Below, piece after piece: positions 28,025-40,071 of a stretch of DNA of 64,000 nt (its first letter is position 1; the number at the start of each line of letters is the position of its first letter). Under the pieces are notes generated by a model. That model was not told the origin of the DNA. It saw nothing but the letters and a program-made list of their open reading frames with translations, and ran no database searches. The stretch comes from Escherichia coli (GTDB taxonomy: Bacteria > Pseudomonadota > Gammaproteobacteria > Enterobacterales > Enterobacteriaceae). A program made the translations under genes and the position numbers. The stretch lies in the NCBI RefSeq assembly GCF_003334315.1, contig NZ_QOWR01000016.1. The stretch is one strand, 5' to 3'.

Positions 28025-29383
<1,359 letters not shown>

Positions 29384-29419
29384 TTAATTAACTGATGATG
29401 AGCCTGGATTTCCGCTCTC

Positions 29420-29455
29420 ACTGAATTTTTATGCAAAATAAATGAGTTTTCATTT
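29420..29455 (-). promoter_or_regulatory. Tandem ARG boxes (ArgR operator) in argG promoter
   Basis: On the argG strand the region reads AAATGAAAACTCATTTAT TTTGCATAAAAATTCAGT, two adjacent 18-bp sites resembling TNTGAATWWWWATTCANT, 50-90 bp upstream of the argG start. Confidence 0.55.
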
Positions 29456-29593
29456 AATCATCTTTTATCGGAGACAGGAAGAGTTTAGTGTGTTTTTTGT
29501 AAAATAATGCGCTTAAGGGAGAGCAGGAGAAGGCAAAAGTATTCAACAAATGAAAGTGAACTGGATATTCATTCACATGATTAGCAATAAACG

Positions 29594-29623
29594 TTGACAA
29601 AATGTGGCGTGGATCACTATAAT
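29594..29623 (+). promoter_or_regulatory. Near-consensus sigma-70 promoter upstream of metY (distal)
   Basis: TTGACA -18 nt- TATAAT read directly from sequence about 95 bp upstream of the tRNA. Confidence 0.5.
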
Positions 29624-29671
29624 GCCTGCAGATTTTACGTCCCGTCTCGGTACACCAAATCCCAGCAGTAT

Positions 29672-29700
29672 TTGCATTTTTTACCCAAAACGAGTAGAAT
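29672..29700 (+). promoter_or_regulatory. sigma-70 promoter of metY (proximal)
   Basis: TTGCAT -17 nt- TAGAAT ending about 15 nt upstream of the mature tRNA 5' end. Confidence 0.6.
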
Positions 29701-29715
29701 TTGCCACGTTTCAGG

Positions 29716-29792
<77 letters not shown>

Positions 29793-29913
29793 CTTTCCCT
29801 TAGAGTCCTTTTTCAAATATACTGTGAAGACTTCGGCCTTCGTAGTGGGATTTGAAAAAATCCTTCTGGAAAGTGCTCCAGACCGCAGTTGCGGTTATAG
29901 GGTTCAGTTATAT

Positions 29914-29940
29914 AAAGCCCCGATTTATCGGGGTTTTTTG
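29914..29940 (+). terminator. Intrinsic terminator/attenuator between metY and rimP
   Basis: AAAGCCCCGATTTATCGGGGTTTTTTG hairpin plus T-tract. Confidence 0.7.
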
Positions 29941-29998
29941 TTATCTGACTACAGAATAACTGGGCTTTAGGCCCTTTTTTTATGTCTTGGGGGTGGGC

Positions 29999-30451
29999 TT
30001 GTCCACATTAGAGCAAAAATTAACAGAGATGATTACTGCGCCAGTTGAGGCCCTGGGTTTTGAACTGGTTGGCATCGAATTTATTCGCGGTCGCACATCC
30101 ACACTGCGCATCTATATTGATAGTGAAGATGGCATCAATGTTGATGATTGTGCTGATGTGAGCCACCAGGTAAGTGCTGTGCTGGATGTTGAAGATCCCA
30201 TCACCGTTGCTTATAACCTGGAAGTCTCCTCACCGGGTCTCGATCGCCCACTGTTCACGGCTGAACACTACGCCCGTTTTGTCGGAGAAGAGGTGACTCT
30301 GGTTCTCCGTATGGCGGTACAAAACCGTCGTAAATGGCAGGGCGTTATCAAAGCGGTAGACGGTGAAATGATCACAGTTACCGTCGAAGGTAAAGATGAA
30401 GTGTTCGCGCTGAGTAATATCCAGAAGGCGAACCTGGTTCCCCACTTTTAA
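29999..30451 (+). CDS. rimP: Ribosome maturation factor RimP
   Basis: 150-aa product (M)[24 protein letters not shown] from a TTG start; matches RimP (YhbC). Confidence 0.9.
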
Positions 30452-30478
30452 TAGTCTGGATGAGGTGAAAAGCCCGCG

Positions 30479-31966
<1,488 letters not shown>

Positions 31967-31990
31967 TAAACTGTAGCAGGAAGGAACAGC

Positions 31991-34663
31991 ATGACAGATG
32001 TAACGATTAAAACGCTGGCCGCAGAGCGACAGACCTCCGTGGAACGCCTGGTACAGCAATTTGCTGATGCAGGTATCCGGAAGTCTGCTGACGACTCTGT
32101 GTCTGCACAAGAGAAACAGACTTTGATTGACCACCTGAATCAGAAAAATTCAGGCCCGGACAAATTGACGCTGCAACGTAAAACACGCAGCACCCTTAAC
32201 ATTCCTGGTACCGGTGGAAAAAGCAAATCGGTACAAATCGAAGTCCGCAAGAAACGCACCTTTGTGAAACGCGATCCGCAAGAGGCTGAACGCCTTGCAG
32301 CGGAAGAGCAAGCGCAGCGTGAAGCGGAAGAGCAAGCCCGTCGTGAGGCAGAAGAATCGGCTAAACGCGAGGCGCAACAAAAAGCTGAACGTGAGGCCGC
32401 AGAACAAGCTAAGCGTGAAGCTGCTGAACAAGCGAAACGTGAAGCTGCGGAAAAAGACAAAGTGAGCAATCAACAAGACGATATGACTAAAAACGCCCAG
32501 GCTGAAAAAGCCCGCCGTGAGCAGGAAGCTGCAGAGCTCAAGCGTAAAGCTGAAGAAGAAGCGCGTCGTAAACTCGAAGAAGAAGCACGTCGCGTTGCTG
32601 AAGAAGCACGTCGTATGGCGGAAGAAAACAAATGGACTGATAACGCGGAACCGACTGAAGATTCCAGCGATTATCACGTCACTACTTCTCAACATGCTCG
32701 CCAGGCAGAAGACGAAAGCGATCGTGAAGTCGAAGGCGGCCGTGGCCGTGGTCGTAACGCGAAAGCAGCGCGTCCGAAGAAAGGCAACAAACACGCTGAA
32801 TCAAAAGCTGATCGTGAAGAAGCACGCGCAGCAGTACGTGGCGGTAAAGGCGGAAAACGTAAAGGTTCTTCGCTGCAGCAAGGCTTCCAGAAGCCTGCTC
32901 AGGCCGTTAACCGTGACGTTGTGATCGGCGAAACTATCACCGTTGGCGAACTGGCGAACAAGATGGCGGTTAAAGGCTCTCAGGTCATCAAAGCGATGAT
33001 GAAACTGGGCGCAATGGCAACCATCAACCAGGTTATCGATCAGGAAACCGCACAGCTGGTTGCTGAAGAGATGGGCCATAAAGTTATCCTGCGTCGTGAA
33101 AACGAGCTGGAAGAGGCGGTAATGAGCGACCGTGACACGGGTGCTGCGGCTGAACCGCGCGCGCCGGTTGTGACCATCATGGGTCACGTTGACCACGGTA
33201 AAACCTCTCTGCTGGACTACATTCGTTCAACGAAAGTGGCCTCTGGCGAAGCGGGCGGCATTACCCAGCACATTGGTGCATACCACGTTGAAACTGAAAA
33301 CGGCATGATCACCTTCCTGGACACCCCGGGGCACGCCGCGTTTACTTCAATGCGTGCTCGTGGTGCGCAGGCAACGGACATCGTAGTCCTGGTTGTTGCT
33401 GCCGACGACGGTGTGATGCCGCAGACCATCGAAGCAATCCAGCACGCGAAAGCGGCGCAGGTACCGGTGGTGGTTGCAGTGAACAAGATCGATAAACCAG
33501 AAGCTGATCCGGATCGCGTTAAGAACGAACTCTCCCAGTACGGCATCCTGCCGGAAGAGTGGGGCGGTGAAAGCCAGTTCGTACACGTATCTGCGAAAGC
33601 GGGTACCGGTATCGATGAACTGCTGGACGCTATCCTGCTGCAGGCGGAAGTTCTGGAGCTGAAAGCGGTACGTAAAGGTATGGCGAGCGGTGCGGTTATC
33701 GAATCCTTCCTCGATAAAGGTCGTGGTCCGGTTGCTACCGTTCTGGTACGTGAAGGTACTCTGCACAAGGGCGATATCGTTCTGTGTGGCTTCGAATACG
33801 GTCGTGTTCGTGCGATGCGTAACGAACTGGGTCAGGAAGTGCTGGAAGCGGGTCCGTCCATTCCGGTGGAAATCCTCGGCCTGTCCGGCGTACCGGCTGC
33901 GGGTGATGAAGTTACCGTTGTACGTGACGAGAAGAAAGCGCGTGAAGTTGCACTCTATCGTCAGGGTAAATTCCGCGAAGTTAAACTGGCGCGTCAGCAG
34001 AAATCTAAACTCGAGAACATGTTCGCCAACATGACCGAAGGCGAAGTTCACGAAGTGAATATCGTCCTGAAGGCAGACGTACAGGGTTCTGTCGAAGCGA
34101 TCTCCGACTCCTTGCTGAAACTGTCTACTGACGAAGTTAAAGTGAAGATCATCGGTTCTGGCGTAGGTGGTATCACCGAAACCGACGCCACCCTGGCTGC
34201 GGCGTCCAACGCCATCCTGGTTGGCTTTAACGTACGTGCTGATGCCTCTGCACGTAAAGTGATTGAAGCGGAAAGCCTGGATCTGCGTTACTACTCCGTC
34301 ATCTATAACCTGATTGACGAAGTGAAAGCGGCGATGAGCGGTATGCTGTCTCCGGAACTGAAACAGCAGATTATCGGTCTGGCGGAAGTTCGTGACGTGT
34401 TCAAATCGCCGAAATTTGGTGCCATCGCAGGCTGTATGGTTACCGAAGGTGTGGTTAAACGTCACAACCCGATCCGCGTTCTGCGTGACAACGTGGTTAT
34501 CTACGAAGGCGAGCTGGAGTCCCTGCGCCGCTTCAAAGATGACGTTAACGAAGTCCGTAACGGTATGGAATGTGGTATCGGCGTTAAGAACTACAACGAC
34601 GTCCGCACTGGCGATGTGATCGAAGTATTCGAAATCATCGAGATCCAACGTACCATTGCTTAA
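31991..34663 (+). CDS. infB: Translation initiation factor IF-2
   Basis: 890-aa [32 protein letters not shown] with repetitive charged N-terminal region and GTPase G-domain ([12 protein letters not shown]); matches IF2. Confidence 0.97.
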
Positions 34664-34681
34664 GGTTTTTAGGGTTCCATG

Positions 34682-34757
34682 CGGGATAAGGCGTTTACGC
34701 TGCATCCGGCATGGATTGCCTGATGTGACGCTGGCGCGTCTTATCAGGTCAACGTGA
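34682..34757. repeat. REP element between infB and rbfA
   Basis: CGGGATAAGGCGTTTACGCTGCATCCGGCA ... GCCTGATGTGACGCTGGCGCGTCTTATCAGGTC. Confidence 0.75.
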
Positions 34758-34784
34758 ACAGCCCTTCCACCTGAAATTAATTTT

Positions 34785-34810
34785 AAAAAGGGGCTAACAG
34801 CCCCTTTTTT
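34785..34810 (+). terminator. Terminator-like hairpin immediately upstream of rbfA RBS
   Basis: AAAAAGGGGCTAACAGCCCCTTTTTT then GTCAGGAGAA and the rbfA ATG; possible attenuator within the nusA-infB-rbfA operon. Confidence 0.55.
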
Positions 34811-34826
34811 GTCAGGAGAATTTATT

Positions 34827-35228
34827 ATGGCGAAAGAATTTGGTCGCCCGCAGCGCGTAGCGCAGGAAATGCAAAAAGAGATCGCTCTCATCCTGCAGCG
34901 TGAAATTAAAGATCCTCGCCTGGGCATGATGACCACCGTTTCCGGTGTCGAAATGTCTCGCGACCTGGCGTATGCCAAAGTATATGTGACGTTCCTCAAC
35001 GACAAAGATGAAGACGCGGTTAAAGCGGGCATCAAAGCGTTGCAAGAAGCTTCTGGTTTCATCCGCAGCCTGCTGGGGAAAGCGATGCGCCTGCGTATCG
35101 TGCCGGAACTGACCTTCTTCTACGACAACTCTCTGGTTGAAGGGATGCGCATGTCAAACCTGGTGACCAGCGTGGTCAAACATGACGAAGAACGTCGTGT
35201 TAACCCGGACGACAGCAAGGAGGACTAA
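34827..35228 (+). CDS. rbfA: Ribosome-binding factor A
   Basis: Track ORF trimmed to [24 protein letters not shown] giving 133 aa; matches RbfA. Confidence 0.95.
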
Positions 35229-36172
35229 TGAGTCGTCCTCGTCGTCGCGGTCGCGACATTAACGGCGTTTTGTTGCTGGATAAACCTCAGGGTATGTCCA
35301 GCAACGATGCGCTGCAAAAAGTGAAACGTATATATAACGCCAACCGTGCCGGGCATACCGGTGCGCTGGACCCGCTGGCGACCGGCATGTTGCCGATTTG
35401 CCTCGGGGAAGCGACGAAGTTTTCCCAGTATCTGCTGGACTCCGACAAACGCTATCGGGTCATTGCGCGTCTTGGACAGCGTACCGATACTTCTGATGCC
35501 GACGGACAGATCGTTGAAGAACGTCCGGTAACCTTTAGCGCAGAGCAGCTGGCAGCGGCACTGGATACTTTCCGTGGCGATATCGAACAGATCCCTTCGA
35601 TGTATTCAGCACTGAAATATCAGGGCAAAAAACTGTACGAATATGCGCGTCAGGGCATTGAAGTTCCGCGTGAAGCGCGTCCGATTACCGTTTATGAATT
35701 GCTGTTTATTCGCCATGAAGGCAATGAGCTGGAGCTGGAAATTCACTGCTCAAAAGGCACTTATATCCGCACCATCATTGATGACCTGGGTGAAAAACTC
35801 GGCTGTGGCGCGCATGTTATTTACCTGCGCCGTCTGGCGGTAAGTAAATATCCGGTTGAACGGATGGTGACCCTGGAGCACCTGCGTGAACTTGTTGAGC
35901 AAGCTGAACAGCAGGATATTCCAGCCGCGGAGTTACTTGATCCATTACTGATGCCAATGGACAGTCCAGCTTCGGACTATCCGGTGGTGAATCTTCCGTT
36001 AACGTCTTCTGTTTACTTCAAAAATGGTAACCCGGTTCGTACATCTGGTGCGCCACTGGAAGGACTGGTTCGCGTCACGGAAGGTGAGAACGGCAAATTT
36101 ATCGGTATGGGCGAAATTGACGATGAAGGCCGCGTTGCGCCTCGTCGCCTGGTGGTTGAATACCCGGCGTAA
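35228..36172 (+). CDS. truB: tRNA pseudouridine-55 synthase
   Basis: 314-aa ORF with catalytic [14 protein letters not shown]; matches TruB; start overlaps rbfA stop. Confidence 0.96.
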
Positions 36173-36224
36173 TGTTAACCGTCTTGCGATAACAGGTCGC
36201 TACGAGTAGAATACTGCCGCTTAA

Positions 36225-36590
<366 letters not shown>

Positions 36591-36606
36591 TTCTTGCGAG
36601 TTTCAG

Positions 36607-36635
36607 AAAAGGGGGCCTGAGTGGCCCCTTTTTTC
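36607..36635 (+). terminator. Intrinsic terminator after rpsO
   Basis: AAAAGGGGGCCTGAGTGGCCCCTTTTTTC. Confidence 0.8.
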
Positions 36636-36836
36636 AAGCTGACGGCAGCAATTCACTGGAAACTAATGTATTGTTGCTATGAATGATCTTCCGTTGCAGA
36701 GGTTCGCGCGGCTAATGAGAGGCTTTACCCACATAGAGCTGGGTTAGGGTTGTCATTAGTCGCGAGGATGCGCAGAAGATCGGGTATTAACACCAGTGCC
36801 GTAAGGTACTGTCTAAGAAAGAGAAAGGATATTACA
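36636..36836 (+). promoter_or_regulatory. pnp 5' leader (autoregulatory region with RNase III-processed stem-loop; sRNA SraG reported in this intergenic region)
   Basis: About 200-nt untranslated region between rpsO terminator and the UUG start of pnp; regulatory role is from published E. coli work, not seen directly. Confidence 0.5.
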
Positions 36837-38972
36837 TTGCTTAATCCGATCGTTCGTAAATTCCAGTACGGCCAACACACCGTGACTCTGGAAACCGGCA
36901 TGATGGCTCGTCAGGCTACTGCCGCTGTTATGGTTAGCATGGATGACACCGCGGTATTCGTTACCGTTGTTGGCCAGAAAAAAGCCAAACCAGGTCAGGA
37001 CTTCTTCCCACTGACCGTTAACTATCAGGAGCGTACCTACGCTGCTGGTCGTATCCCGGGTAGCTTCTTCCGTCGTGAAGGCCGCCCAAGCGAAGGCGAA
37101 ACCCTGATCGCGCGTCTGATTGACCGCCCGATTCGCCCGCTGTTCCCGGAAGGCTTCGTCAACGAAGTTCAGGTTATCGCCACCGTGGTTTCTGTTAACC
37201 CGCAAGTTAACCCGGATATCGTCGCGATGATTGGTGCTTCCGCAGCGCTGTCTCTGTCTGGTATTCCGTTCAATGGCCCGATTGGTGCTGCCCGCGTAGG
37301 TTACATCAATGACCAGTACGTACTGAACCCGACTCAGGACGAGCTGAAAGAGAGCAAACTGGATCTGGTTGTTGCCGGTACTGAAGCCGCTGTACTGATG
37401 GTTGAATCTGAAGCTCAACTGCTGAGCGAAGACCAGATGCTGGGCGCAGTAGTGTTCGGTCATGAACAACAGCAGGTTGTTATTCAGAACATCAATGAAC
37501 TGGTGAAAGAAGCCGGTAAACCGCGTTGGGACTGGCAGCCGGAGCCGGTAAACGAAGCGCTAAACGCGCGCGTTGCTGCACTGGCTGAAGCTCGCCTGAG
37601 CGATGCTTACCGCATCACCGACAAACAAGAGCGTTATGCGCAGGTTGATGTCATCAAATCTGAAACCATCGCGACGCTGCTTGCTGAAGACGAAACCCTG
37701 GACGAAAACGAACTGGGTGAAATTCTGCACGCGATCGAGAAAAACGTTGTTCGTAGCCGCGTACTGGCAGGCGAACCGCGTATCGACGGTCGTGAAAAAG
37801 ATATGATCCGTGGTCTGGATGTGCGTACTGGCGTGCTGCCGCGTACTCACGGTTCTGCGCTGTTCACCCGTGGTGAAACGCAGGCGCTGGTTACCGCAAC
37901 GCTGGGTACTGCTCGTGACGCGCAGGTTCTTGATGAACTGATGGGCGAGCGTACCGATACCTTCCTGTTCCACTACAACTTCCCTCCGTACTCCGTAGGC
38001 GAAACCGGCATGGTCGGTTCTCCGAAGCGTCGTGAAATTGGTCACGGTCGTCTGGCGAAGCGCGGCGTGCTGGCAGTCATGCCGGATATGGACAAATTCC
38101 CGTACACCGTACGTGTTGTGTCTGAAATCACTGAATCCAACGGTTCCTCTTCTATGGCTTCCGTGTGCGGCGCGTCTCTGGCGCTGATGGACGCAGGTGT
38201 GCCGATCAAAGCTGCCGTTGCGGGTATCGCAATGGGTCTGGTGAAAGAAGGCGACAACTACGTTGTACTGTCTGACATTTTGGGCGACGAAGATCACCTG
38301 GGCGATATGGACTTCAAAGTTGCAGGTTCCCGCGACGGTATCTCTGCACTGCAGATGGATATCAAAATTGAAGGTATCACCAAAGAGATCATGCAGGTTG
38401 CGCTGAACCAGGCTAAAGGTGCGCGTCTGCATATCCTGGGCGTAATGGAACAGGCGATCAACGCGCCGCGTGGCGATATCTCTGAGTTCGCACCGCGTAT
38501 CCATACCATCAAGATCAACCCGGACAAGATCAAAGATGTTATCGGTAAAGGCGGTTCTGTAATCCGTGCTCTGACCGAAGAAACTGGCACCACCATCGAA
38601 ATCGAAGATGACGGTACTGTGAAGATTGCAGCGACCGACGGCGAGAAAGCGAAACATGCTATTCGTCGTATCGAAGAGATCACTGCAGAAATCGAAGTGG
38701 GCCGCGTCTACACTGGTAAAGTGACCCGTATCGTTGACTTTGGCGCATTTGTTGCCATCGGCGGCGGTAAAGAAGGTCTGGTCCACATCTCTCAAATCGC
38801 TGACAAACGCGTTGAGAAAGTGACCGATTACCTGCAGATGGGTCAGGAAGTACCGGTGAAAGTTCTGGAAGTTGATCGCCAGGGCCGTATCCGTCTGAGC
38901 ATTAAAGAAGCGACTGAGCAGTCTCAACCTGCTGCAGCACCGGAAGCTCCGGCTGCTGAACAGGGCGAGTAA
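36837..38972 (+). CDS. pnp: Polynucleotide phosphorylase
   Basis: 711-aa product from TTG start, (M)[26 protein letters not shown]; track ORF 36750 is an upstream extension; matches PNPase including C-terminal KH/S1 region. Confidence 0.95.
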
Positions 38973-38982
38973 GGTTGCCATT

Positions 38983-39010
38983 TGCCCTCCGCTGCGGCGG
39001 GGGGCTTTTA
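38983..39010 (+). terminator. Intrinsic terminator after pnp
   Basis: GCCCTCCGCTGCGGCGGGGGGCTTTT. Confidence 0.65.
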
Positions 39011-39080
39011 ACCGGGCAGGACGCCTTGTTAGCAACCGGGAACAGGACGTTCATTCAACCGTGGTCTTCGGGAGTGGGAA

Positions 39081-39965
39081 ATGAAGCCTTTTTTGCGCTG
39101 GTGTTTCGTTGCGACAGCACTTACGCTTGCAGGATGCAGTAATACTTCCTGGCGTAAAAGTGAAGTCCTCGCGGTACCATTGCAACCGACTTTACAGCAG
39201 GAAGTGATTCTGGCACGTATGGAACAAATCCTTGCCAGTCGGGCTTTAACCGATGACGAACGCGCACAGCTTTTATATGAGCGCGGAGTGTTGTATGATA
39301 GTCTCGGTCTGAGGGCATTAGCGCGTAACGATTTTTCGCAAGCGCTGGCAATCCGACCGGATATGCCTGAAGTATTCAATTACTTAGGCATATATTTAAC
39401 GCAGGCAGGCAATTTTGATGCTGCCTATGAAGCGTTTGATTCTGTACTTGAGCTTGATCCAACTTACAACTACGCGCACTTGAATCGCGGGATCGCATTA
39501 TATTACGGCGGTCGTGACAAGTTAGCGCAAGATGATCTGCTGGCGTTTTATCAAGACGATCCCAATGATCCTTTCCGTAGTCTGTGGCTTTATCTCGCCG
39601 AGCAGAAGCTCGATGAGAAGCAGGCTAAAGAAGTGTTGAAACAGCACTTCGAAAAATCGGATAAGGAACAGTGGGGATGGAACATTGTCGAGTTCTACCT
39701 GGGCAACATTAGCGAACAAACGTTAATGGAAAGGCTCAAGGCGGACGCAACGGATAACACCTCGCTCGCTGAGCATCTCAGTGAAACCAACTTCTATTTA
39801 GGTAAGTACTACCTAAGTCTGGGGGATTTGGACAGCGCCACGGCACTGTTCAAACTGGCGGTTGCCAACAACGTTCATAACTTTGTTGAGCACCGATACG
39901 CATTGTTGGAATTATCGCTCCTGGGCCAGGACCAAGATGACCTGGCAGAATCGGACCAGCAATAG
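39081..39965 (+). CDS. nlpI: TPR-repeat outer membrane lipoprotein NlpI
   Basis: 294-aa ORF with lipobox LTLAGCS; matches NlpI. Confidence 0.95.
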
Positions 39966-40071
39966 CTGACGTACACATCAGCCCGTAATCTTTTTTGATT
40001 GCCATCACCTTAACGGGTGAGGGCGTTGTTGTTCGTTAATACACCTACTTTGAGCCGGTTCACACTTTTCA

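Follow-up and report, generated by a model that had tools for sequence, protein, structure and literature searches.

The probable t3 terminator before rbfA in Escherichia coli: a hairpin kept across Enterobacteriaceae and Erwiniaceae and the variable repeats beside it

Described systems closest to the infB-rbfA spacer

The rplL-rpoB attenuator is a leaky internal terminator, and its principle is comparable to that of t3, the terminator described ahead of rbfA in Escherichia coli. Between malE and malF, intercistronic REPs stabilise the upstream mRNA. At the locus considered here, both t3 and the REP pair before rbfA are already known, and partial termination is the accepted description.

Terminator t3 was placed just upstream of rbfA in K-12 by Brandi et al. 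(2019; NAR 47:4638; PMC6511841), who credit the terminators of the operon to Plumbridge & Springer (1983). Their northern blots detected an RNA of ~4.8 kb covering rimP-nusA-infB, which is negative with an rbfA probe and "likely" ends at t3, and a read-through RNA of ~6.7 kb that contains rbfA. Steady-state mRNA levels followed the order nusA > infB > rimP > rbfA, with infB at about twice the level of rbfA (Brandi et al. 2019). As published, read-through sometimes extends to rpsO-pnp, and published summaries state that metY-rpsO holds multiple terminators. Cold shock proteins have also been implicated: papers that cite Bae et al. (2000) credit CspA, CspC and CspE with lowering intrinsic termination in metY-rpsO and with raising the expression of nusA and rbfA, but Brandi et al. 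(2019) dispute Csp antitermination as the cause of cold induction.

The repeats have a literature of their own. Naville & Gautheret (2010; Genome Biol 11:R97; PMC2965389) presented the BIME before rbfA, together with those of gatY and cvpA, as a candidate attenuator; the spacer analysed here precedes that same rbfA gene and carries an element of that kind. Its repeats also resemble the REP/BIME repeats of E. coli described by Gilson, Hofnung and Higgins in being Y and Z imperfect palindromes that are inverted, extragenic, transcribed and multicopy.

Layout and structure of the spacer

We analysed a stretch of 64,000 nucleotides of E. coli DNA (the window), in which the infB-rbfA spacer occupies 34664-34826 (163 nt), bounded exactly by the infB stop and the rbfA ATG. 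It is identical, base for base, to positions 3313179-3313341 (minus strand) of MG1655 (NC_000913.3), and a 701-nt query over the infB-rbfA junction matched 5426/5426 complete E. coli genomes, 100% identical ones included. An earlier note on this DNA had located a REP element and a terminator-like hairpin in the spacer, and its coordinates, the sequence it quoted and its distance of about 16 nt to the rbfA ATG are all correct in the window sequence. The features, with the evidence for each in brackets, are as follows.

31991-34663, + strand: infB (IF2) coding sequence, whose TAA stop ends at 34663 (open reading frame list; infB annotation in all matching E. coli genomes and K-12).
34676-34715, + strand: REP 1, Y-type, inverted, with an extended stem UCCAUGC/GCAUGGA (fold; motifs CATCCGGC and GGATAAGG; within the RF02564 match).
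34716-34753, + strand: REP 2, Z-type, forward, which forms a BIME with REP 1 (REP consensus; fold; copy number).
34754-34784, + strand: A/T-rich linker from the BIME to the terminator, GTGAACAGCCCTTCCACCTGAAATTAATTTT (spacer comparison).
34785-34810, + strand: probable intrinsic terminator t3, AAAAAGGGGCTAACAGCCCCTTTTTT, made up of an A-tract (34785-34789), GGGGCU (34790-34795), the loop AAC (34796-34798), AGCCCC (34799-34804) and a U-tract (34805-34810) (sequence, fold, pattern, conservation, literature).
34814-34818, + strand: rbfA Shine-Dalgarno AGGAG, 3 nt past the U-tract with GTC between (sequence).
34827-35228, + strand: rbfA coding sequence, 133 aa (open reading frame list; K-12 annotation; Pfam PF02033 on homologues).
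35228: start of truB (open reading frame list; K-12 annotation).

On the + strand between infB and rbfA, the t3 element begins 122 nt past the infB stop, and 16 nt (34811-34826) separate the end of its T-tract from the rbfA ATG. In locus, sequence and position it is, without difference, the t3 described as a partial terminator of the K-12 metY-rimP-nusA-infB(-rbfA-truB) operon, in another E. coli strain. The earlier note had suggested that partial termination sets the ratio of infB to rbfA-truB, and this is supported: the spacer is that of K-12, in which t3 was placed by Brandi et al. (2019), the 4.8 and 6.7 kb RNAs were seen and rbfA stood at about half of infB. A scan found no sigma-70-like promoter in the spacer, consistent with a dependence of rbfA on read-through. 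The sole candidate for a small open reading frame in the spacer, of 33 aa from a TTG, overlaps the infB stop and the REP; nothing favours it and it was rejected.

What is the function of 34785-34810? We take this segment, with a probability of about 85%, to be the known leaky Rho-independent terminator t3 of the metY-rimP-nusA-infB-rbfA-truB unit. Once polymerase has left infB, the newly made G+C hairpin of 6 bp and the U6 would release part of the transcripts, and the released product would be a rimP-nusA-infB mRNA with its 3' end just ahead of the rbfA Shine-Dalgarno. Polymerases that are not released would read through into an rbfA-truB(-rpsO-pnp) message, and rbfA-truB would be expressed as a fixed fraction of infB. 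The BIME, on this account, would be a genome-wide repeat inserted in the infB 3' UTR and variable among lineages. The structure, the K-12 identity, the conservation of the hairpin and the variability of the repeats come from our analysis, and the t3-ended and read-through RNAs and their ratio of ~2:1 from the literature; we infer the efficiency of termination at t3 and any modulation by NusA or Csp proteins.

The predicted structure is that of a terminator of middling stability. The G+C stem of 6 bp with its loop of 3 nt folds at -9.5 kcal/mol, A5:U6 pairing extends it to 11 bp at -14.8 kcal/mol, and the uninterrupted U6 at 34805-34810 adjoins the stem directly. These values lie between those of t2 in the rimP leader (-7.4, weak) and of the rpsO terminator (-23.7 in context), so the word "strong" in the earlier note overstates what is a moderate hairpin. 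The hairpin is nevertheless more than a chance feature: the pattern GGGGC-N3-9-GCCCC-TTTT occurs three times in the 64-kb window against 0.01 expected, the three matches being the t3 hairpin counted on both strands and the rpsO terminator. A consensus terminator scan of 29000-40000 did not report t3, and on the sense strand it also failed to pick up the rpsO terminator. The scan missed t3 because the A5:T6 pairs extend the stem and use up the T-tract, and we rejected the miss as evidence against t3, as an artefact of the scanner. Simple scans may undercount terminators with a symmetric A-tract and U-tract.

The same stem recurs nearby. The form GGG(G)C-loop-GCCC(C)-U is found in t2 of the rimP leader (29962-29979), in t3 (34790-34808) and in the rpsO terminator (36612-36632); t3 and the rpsO terminator carry the strict form and the relaxed form also takes in t2. 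In ~205 kb of other E. coli sequence, comprising three 50-kb K-12 regions and the remainder of the window, no match to the strict form was found and one to the relaxed form, the tufA terminator. By Poisson, two further relaxed matches in the 9.4-kb metY-pnp cluster have a probability of ~1e-3, or 2e-2 at the upper 95% bound of the background rate; since t3 had been seen before the pattern was chosen, this enrichment is only a lead. Naville & Gautheret (2010, PMC2965389) had called one such stem, the GGGc…gCCC of the rimP-leader terminator, unusual. Because NusA is encoded in the operon, it is conceivable that the t3, t2 and rpsO terminators, with their common GGG(G)C-loop-GCCC(C)-U5-7 form, are a set tuned to the level of NusA (or Csp), although we regard this as unlikely. 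If it were true, NusA autoregulation would reach the infB:rbfA-truB ratio. Separately, the hairpin stays at its fixed place beside the rbfA Shine-Dalgarno even in lineages with a decayed U-tract, a hint of a second role on the read-through RNA, for instance as a 5' stabiliser or ribosome standby site.

Terminators t1 and t2 of the rimP leader and the rpsO terminator resemble t3 in being partial intrinsic terminators within a unit that fix the stoichiometry of upstream and downstream genes. Compared with other leaky terminators, t3 stands out in that only 3 nt separate it from the next Shine-Dalgarno and in that repeats precede it. At the rpsO terminator, an Rfam match to SraG (36607-36778, minus strand) has its 3' end, at 36607, just beyond the hairpin (36612-36632), which thus appears to be a bidirectional terminator for rpsO and the antisense sRNA SraG.

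Upstream of t3, the earlier note had seen a REP in the spacer. A REP is present, yet it is not single: two lie there in inverted orientation, as a BIME that spans 34676-34753, and both are wholly extragenic. They fold as two adjacent long hairpins (34676-34715 and 34716-34752), at -44.5 kcal/mol together and with z = -6.2 against shuffles. REP 2, taken at 34718-34753, fits the REP consensus GCC(G/T)GATG...CTTATC(A/C)GGCCTAC, an imperfect palindrome of about 35-40 nt, with 2 mismatches, where 0 matches are expected by chance. An 80-nt BIME query found a median of at least 40 places to a genome in E. coli; almost every genome had that many, and 40 or more were counted in 4714 records. The pair also matches Rfam naRNA4/REP (RF02564) at 34680-34750, at full length (model positions 1-77) and with 68.1 bits against a gathering threshold of 59.5; the match reflects common REP sequence only, and a naRNA4 gene at the locus was rejected.

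What might the REPs do? The malE-malF REPs are likewise placed between two cistrons of unequal expression; here, in contrast, a true terminator stands 3' of the REPs, which puts them in the 3' UTR of an RNA that terminates at t3. By analogy with other REPs, the very stable hairpins of the BIME most likely form a secondary barrier that protects the infB segment against 3' exonucleases, and the REPs may add a little attenuation. The extended stem of REP 1 starts 13 nt past the infB stop, and the canonical REP core comes later, at ~34680. PMC12306157 cites Liang et al. (2015) for the finding that REPs less than 16 nt from a stop codon stall terminating ribosomes and reduce expression of the gene upstream, and REP 1 might have a slight effect on IF2 synthesis, a borderline case given the position of its core.

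Conservation of the hairpin and variation of the repeats

We compared the window with 79 other Enterobacteriaceae species and four Erwiniaceae loci (Erwinia, Tatumella, Izhakiella and Pantoea), 84 sequences in all; counts out of 80 refer to the window and the 79 other Enterobacteriaceae. Stems of unequal length fall in different registers in the alignment (A2), and because these registers are unfit for formal pair counting, hairpins were counted sequence by sequence. Across the comparison set the infB-rbfA spacer ranges from 59 to 289 nt, and in 84/84 sequences a G+C hairpin, in 40 distinct versions, stands directly before the Shine-Dalgarno; in alignment A2, GGAGA of the Shine-Dalgarno region is invariant.

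The hairpin varies mostly in its loop, with 30 distinct loop sequences among the 80 Enterobacteriaceae on a stem G4-7C/GC4-7 that is followed by a T-rich tail. Most sequences have the stem GGGGC/GCCCC; Cedecea, Buttiauxella, Atlantibacter and Erwinia have GGGGGGC/GCCCCCC, and Tatumella, Izhakiella and Pantoea have GGGAGGCC/GGCCUCCC at the corresponding place. Basal Enterobacteriaceae and Erwiniaceae keep the hairpin with an interrupted tail: GATTTG (GAUUUG), TGTTAG (UGUUAG), TTATTAG, GAAUUAUUUG or GAATTATTTG. From the end of the stem to the rbfA ATG there are two classes of distance, 21-23 nt and 27-30 nt, the longer one having 6-7 extra nt (TCTTTAT and variants) inserted after the T-tract and before the Shine-Dalgarno (A2 columns 40-48). 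Carriers of this insertion include Salmonella, Klebsiella pneumoniae, many Citrobacter and Raoultella (for example loci L004, L006, L007, L014 and L045).

Within E. coli, the t3 hairpin and the rbfA start were found in 5425/5426 genomes, and in 473/5426 identity over the 105 nt that surround the hairpin drops to 90-95%. The loop and inner pair are polymorphic, being TAACA in the window and K-12, TTATG in E69 (L002) and TATG in 22AH104 (L082), and the GGGGC/GCCCC stem and T-tract are constant among these loop variants. In strain 22AH104 (L082, NZ_AP043972.1; 3385-3400 and 4695-4715), an IS4-family element of ~1.3 kb sits inside the t3 hairpin, with its transposase gene on the opposite strand and a duplication of ~10 bp, GGCTATGGCC. 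Upstream of this element a partial hairpin remains that lacks a T-tract; the hairpin on its downstream side, before rbfA, has the T-tract. The insertion is a natural break of the link between infB and rbfA in a viable strain.

Does such a hairpin act by termination at all? The retention of the hairpin where its U-tract is interrupted suggests that termination may not be its only selected role. It could be mainly an element of RNA stability or processing, either a barrier to 3' exonucleases at the end of infB or a 5' stem that protects the rbfA-truB mRNA, with little release of transcripts. Three observations point this way: (i) the hairpin is kept despite a degraded U-tract in Erwiniaceae, Atlantibacter, Shimwellia and the Klebsiella oxytoca group; (ii) its distance to the Shine-Dalgarno is fixed; and (iii) no curated Term-seq 3' end lies in the spacer. 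As to the last, the list for MG1655 in three growth conditions (Adams et al. 2021) has no same-strand 3' end in 3311708-3318213, hence none at t3 or at the REPs, and the supplements of that paper hold no entry that names rbfA or infB. The list is thresholded and is also without a rimP entry, so that the absence of a t3 3' end from it is weak evidence, though this absence does argue against a dominant 3' end at t3. The available supplements of the TERMITe and SMRT-Cappable-seq papers likewise make no mention of rbfA or infB.

Against a role in stability of this kind stands the perfect U5-6 after the stem in E. coli and in the majority of Enterobacteriaceae (51/80 sequences have the tail TTTTTTGT), which a pure stability hairpin would not need. 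A stem of 6 bp is, moreover, a poor exonuclease barrier next to neighbouring REPs of -44.5 kcal/mol. In the literature the element is regarded as a terminator, and overproduction of Csp proteins is reported to raise rbfA expression. We therefore rate the chance that the hairpin is mainly such an element as low, and prefer partial termination at t3.

The segment from the infB stop to the hairpin (34664-34784 in the window; loci L002-L086) behaves quite differently from the hairpin, with a length that ranges from 24 to 247 nt in the comparison set. No repeat was found in it in Cedecea, Buttiauxella, Atlantibacter, Shimwellia or the Erwiniaceae. In most genera there is one REP, of another type (GCCGGGTAAGCGAAGCGCCACCCGGC), and the Y+Z BIME is confined to Escherichia, Pseudocitrobacter and some Citrobacter and Kluyvera loci. 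An ERIC-like element occupies the segment in several Salmonella, Raoultella, Citrobacter and other loci (L006, L015, L017, L038, L039, L047, L050 and L056), accompanied by a further internal insert in L012 and L020. The ERIC-like assignment rests on 19/22 matches to each of what we take to be the ERIC primer sequences. The linker GTGAACAGCCCTTCCACCTGAAATTAATTTT is common to E. albertii and Pseudocitrobacter, and its GTGAACAGCCC part is also found in two Citrobacter loci. An IS10R in the infB-rbfA spacer has been reported for one laboratory strain. The segment is a hotspot of repeat insertion, in which REP, BIME, ERIC-like and IS elements come and go.

These differences bear on the proposal that the BIME, and not the hairpin, is the attenuator, Rho-dependent or structural, and was exapted for rbfA, gatY and cvpA. 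The rbfA BIME belongs to the largest enterobacterial attenuator cluster of Naville & Gautheret (2010, PMC2965389), who also cite BIME-associated attenuation and bidirectional termination. However, repeat content before rbfA is not conserved: the genera named above have none, most others have the single REP or, in several cases, an ERIC-like element, the Y+Z BIME is restricted, and neither REP of the E. coli spacer has a U-tract. Since the repeat varies and is frequently missing, and the small hairpin downstream is present in every sequence compared, the claim of a conserved position holds only in a subset of genera. Repeats that vary beside a universal hairpin are dispensable and the hairpin is not, and an attenuator made of the BIME is accordingly improbable. 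From the comparison of species, it is the hairpin beside the Shine-Dalgarno that is selected, with the repeats as passengers in a permissive site.

Control of rbfA translation is the least probable of the readings: a CCUGA (34770-34774)/UCAGG (34812-34816) helix that encloses the hairpin would mask part of the Shine-Dalgarno on read-through RNA, and it is present in the MFE and centroid folds of 34765-34830 (-20.5 kcal/mol, z = -3.2), but it has only 5 bp, and nearly every other species has UCUGG as its 3' partner, giving a U-U mismatch, and a different upstream partner, so that neither conservation nor covariation is seen and the helix was rejected.

Meaning for the operon and the family

Partial termination at t3 thus carries little value as a discovery, as it concerns a described terminator in one of the best-studied operons of E. 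coli. The locus is a worked example of a leaky terminator that sets the ratio of IF2 to RbfA and TruB, proteins of ribosome maturation. A narrow question, the cold regulation of t3 read-through, is debated between Csp antitermination (Bae et al. 2000, as represented in citing papers) and the account of Brandi et al. (2019). The analysis makes a modest addition to the description of the locus: in Enterobacteriaceae and Erwiniaceae, the conserved part is the small hairpin beside the Shine-Dalgarno.
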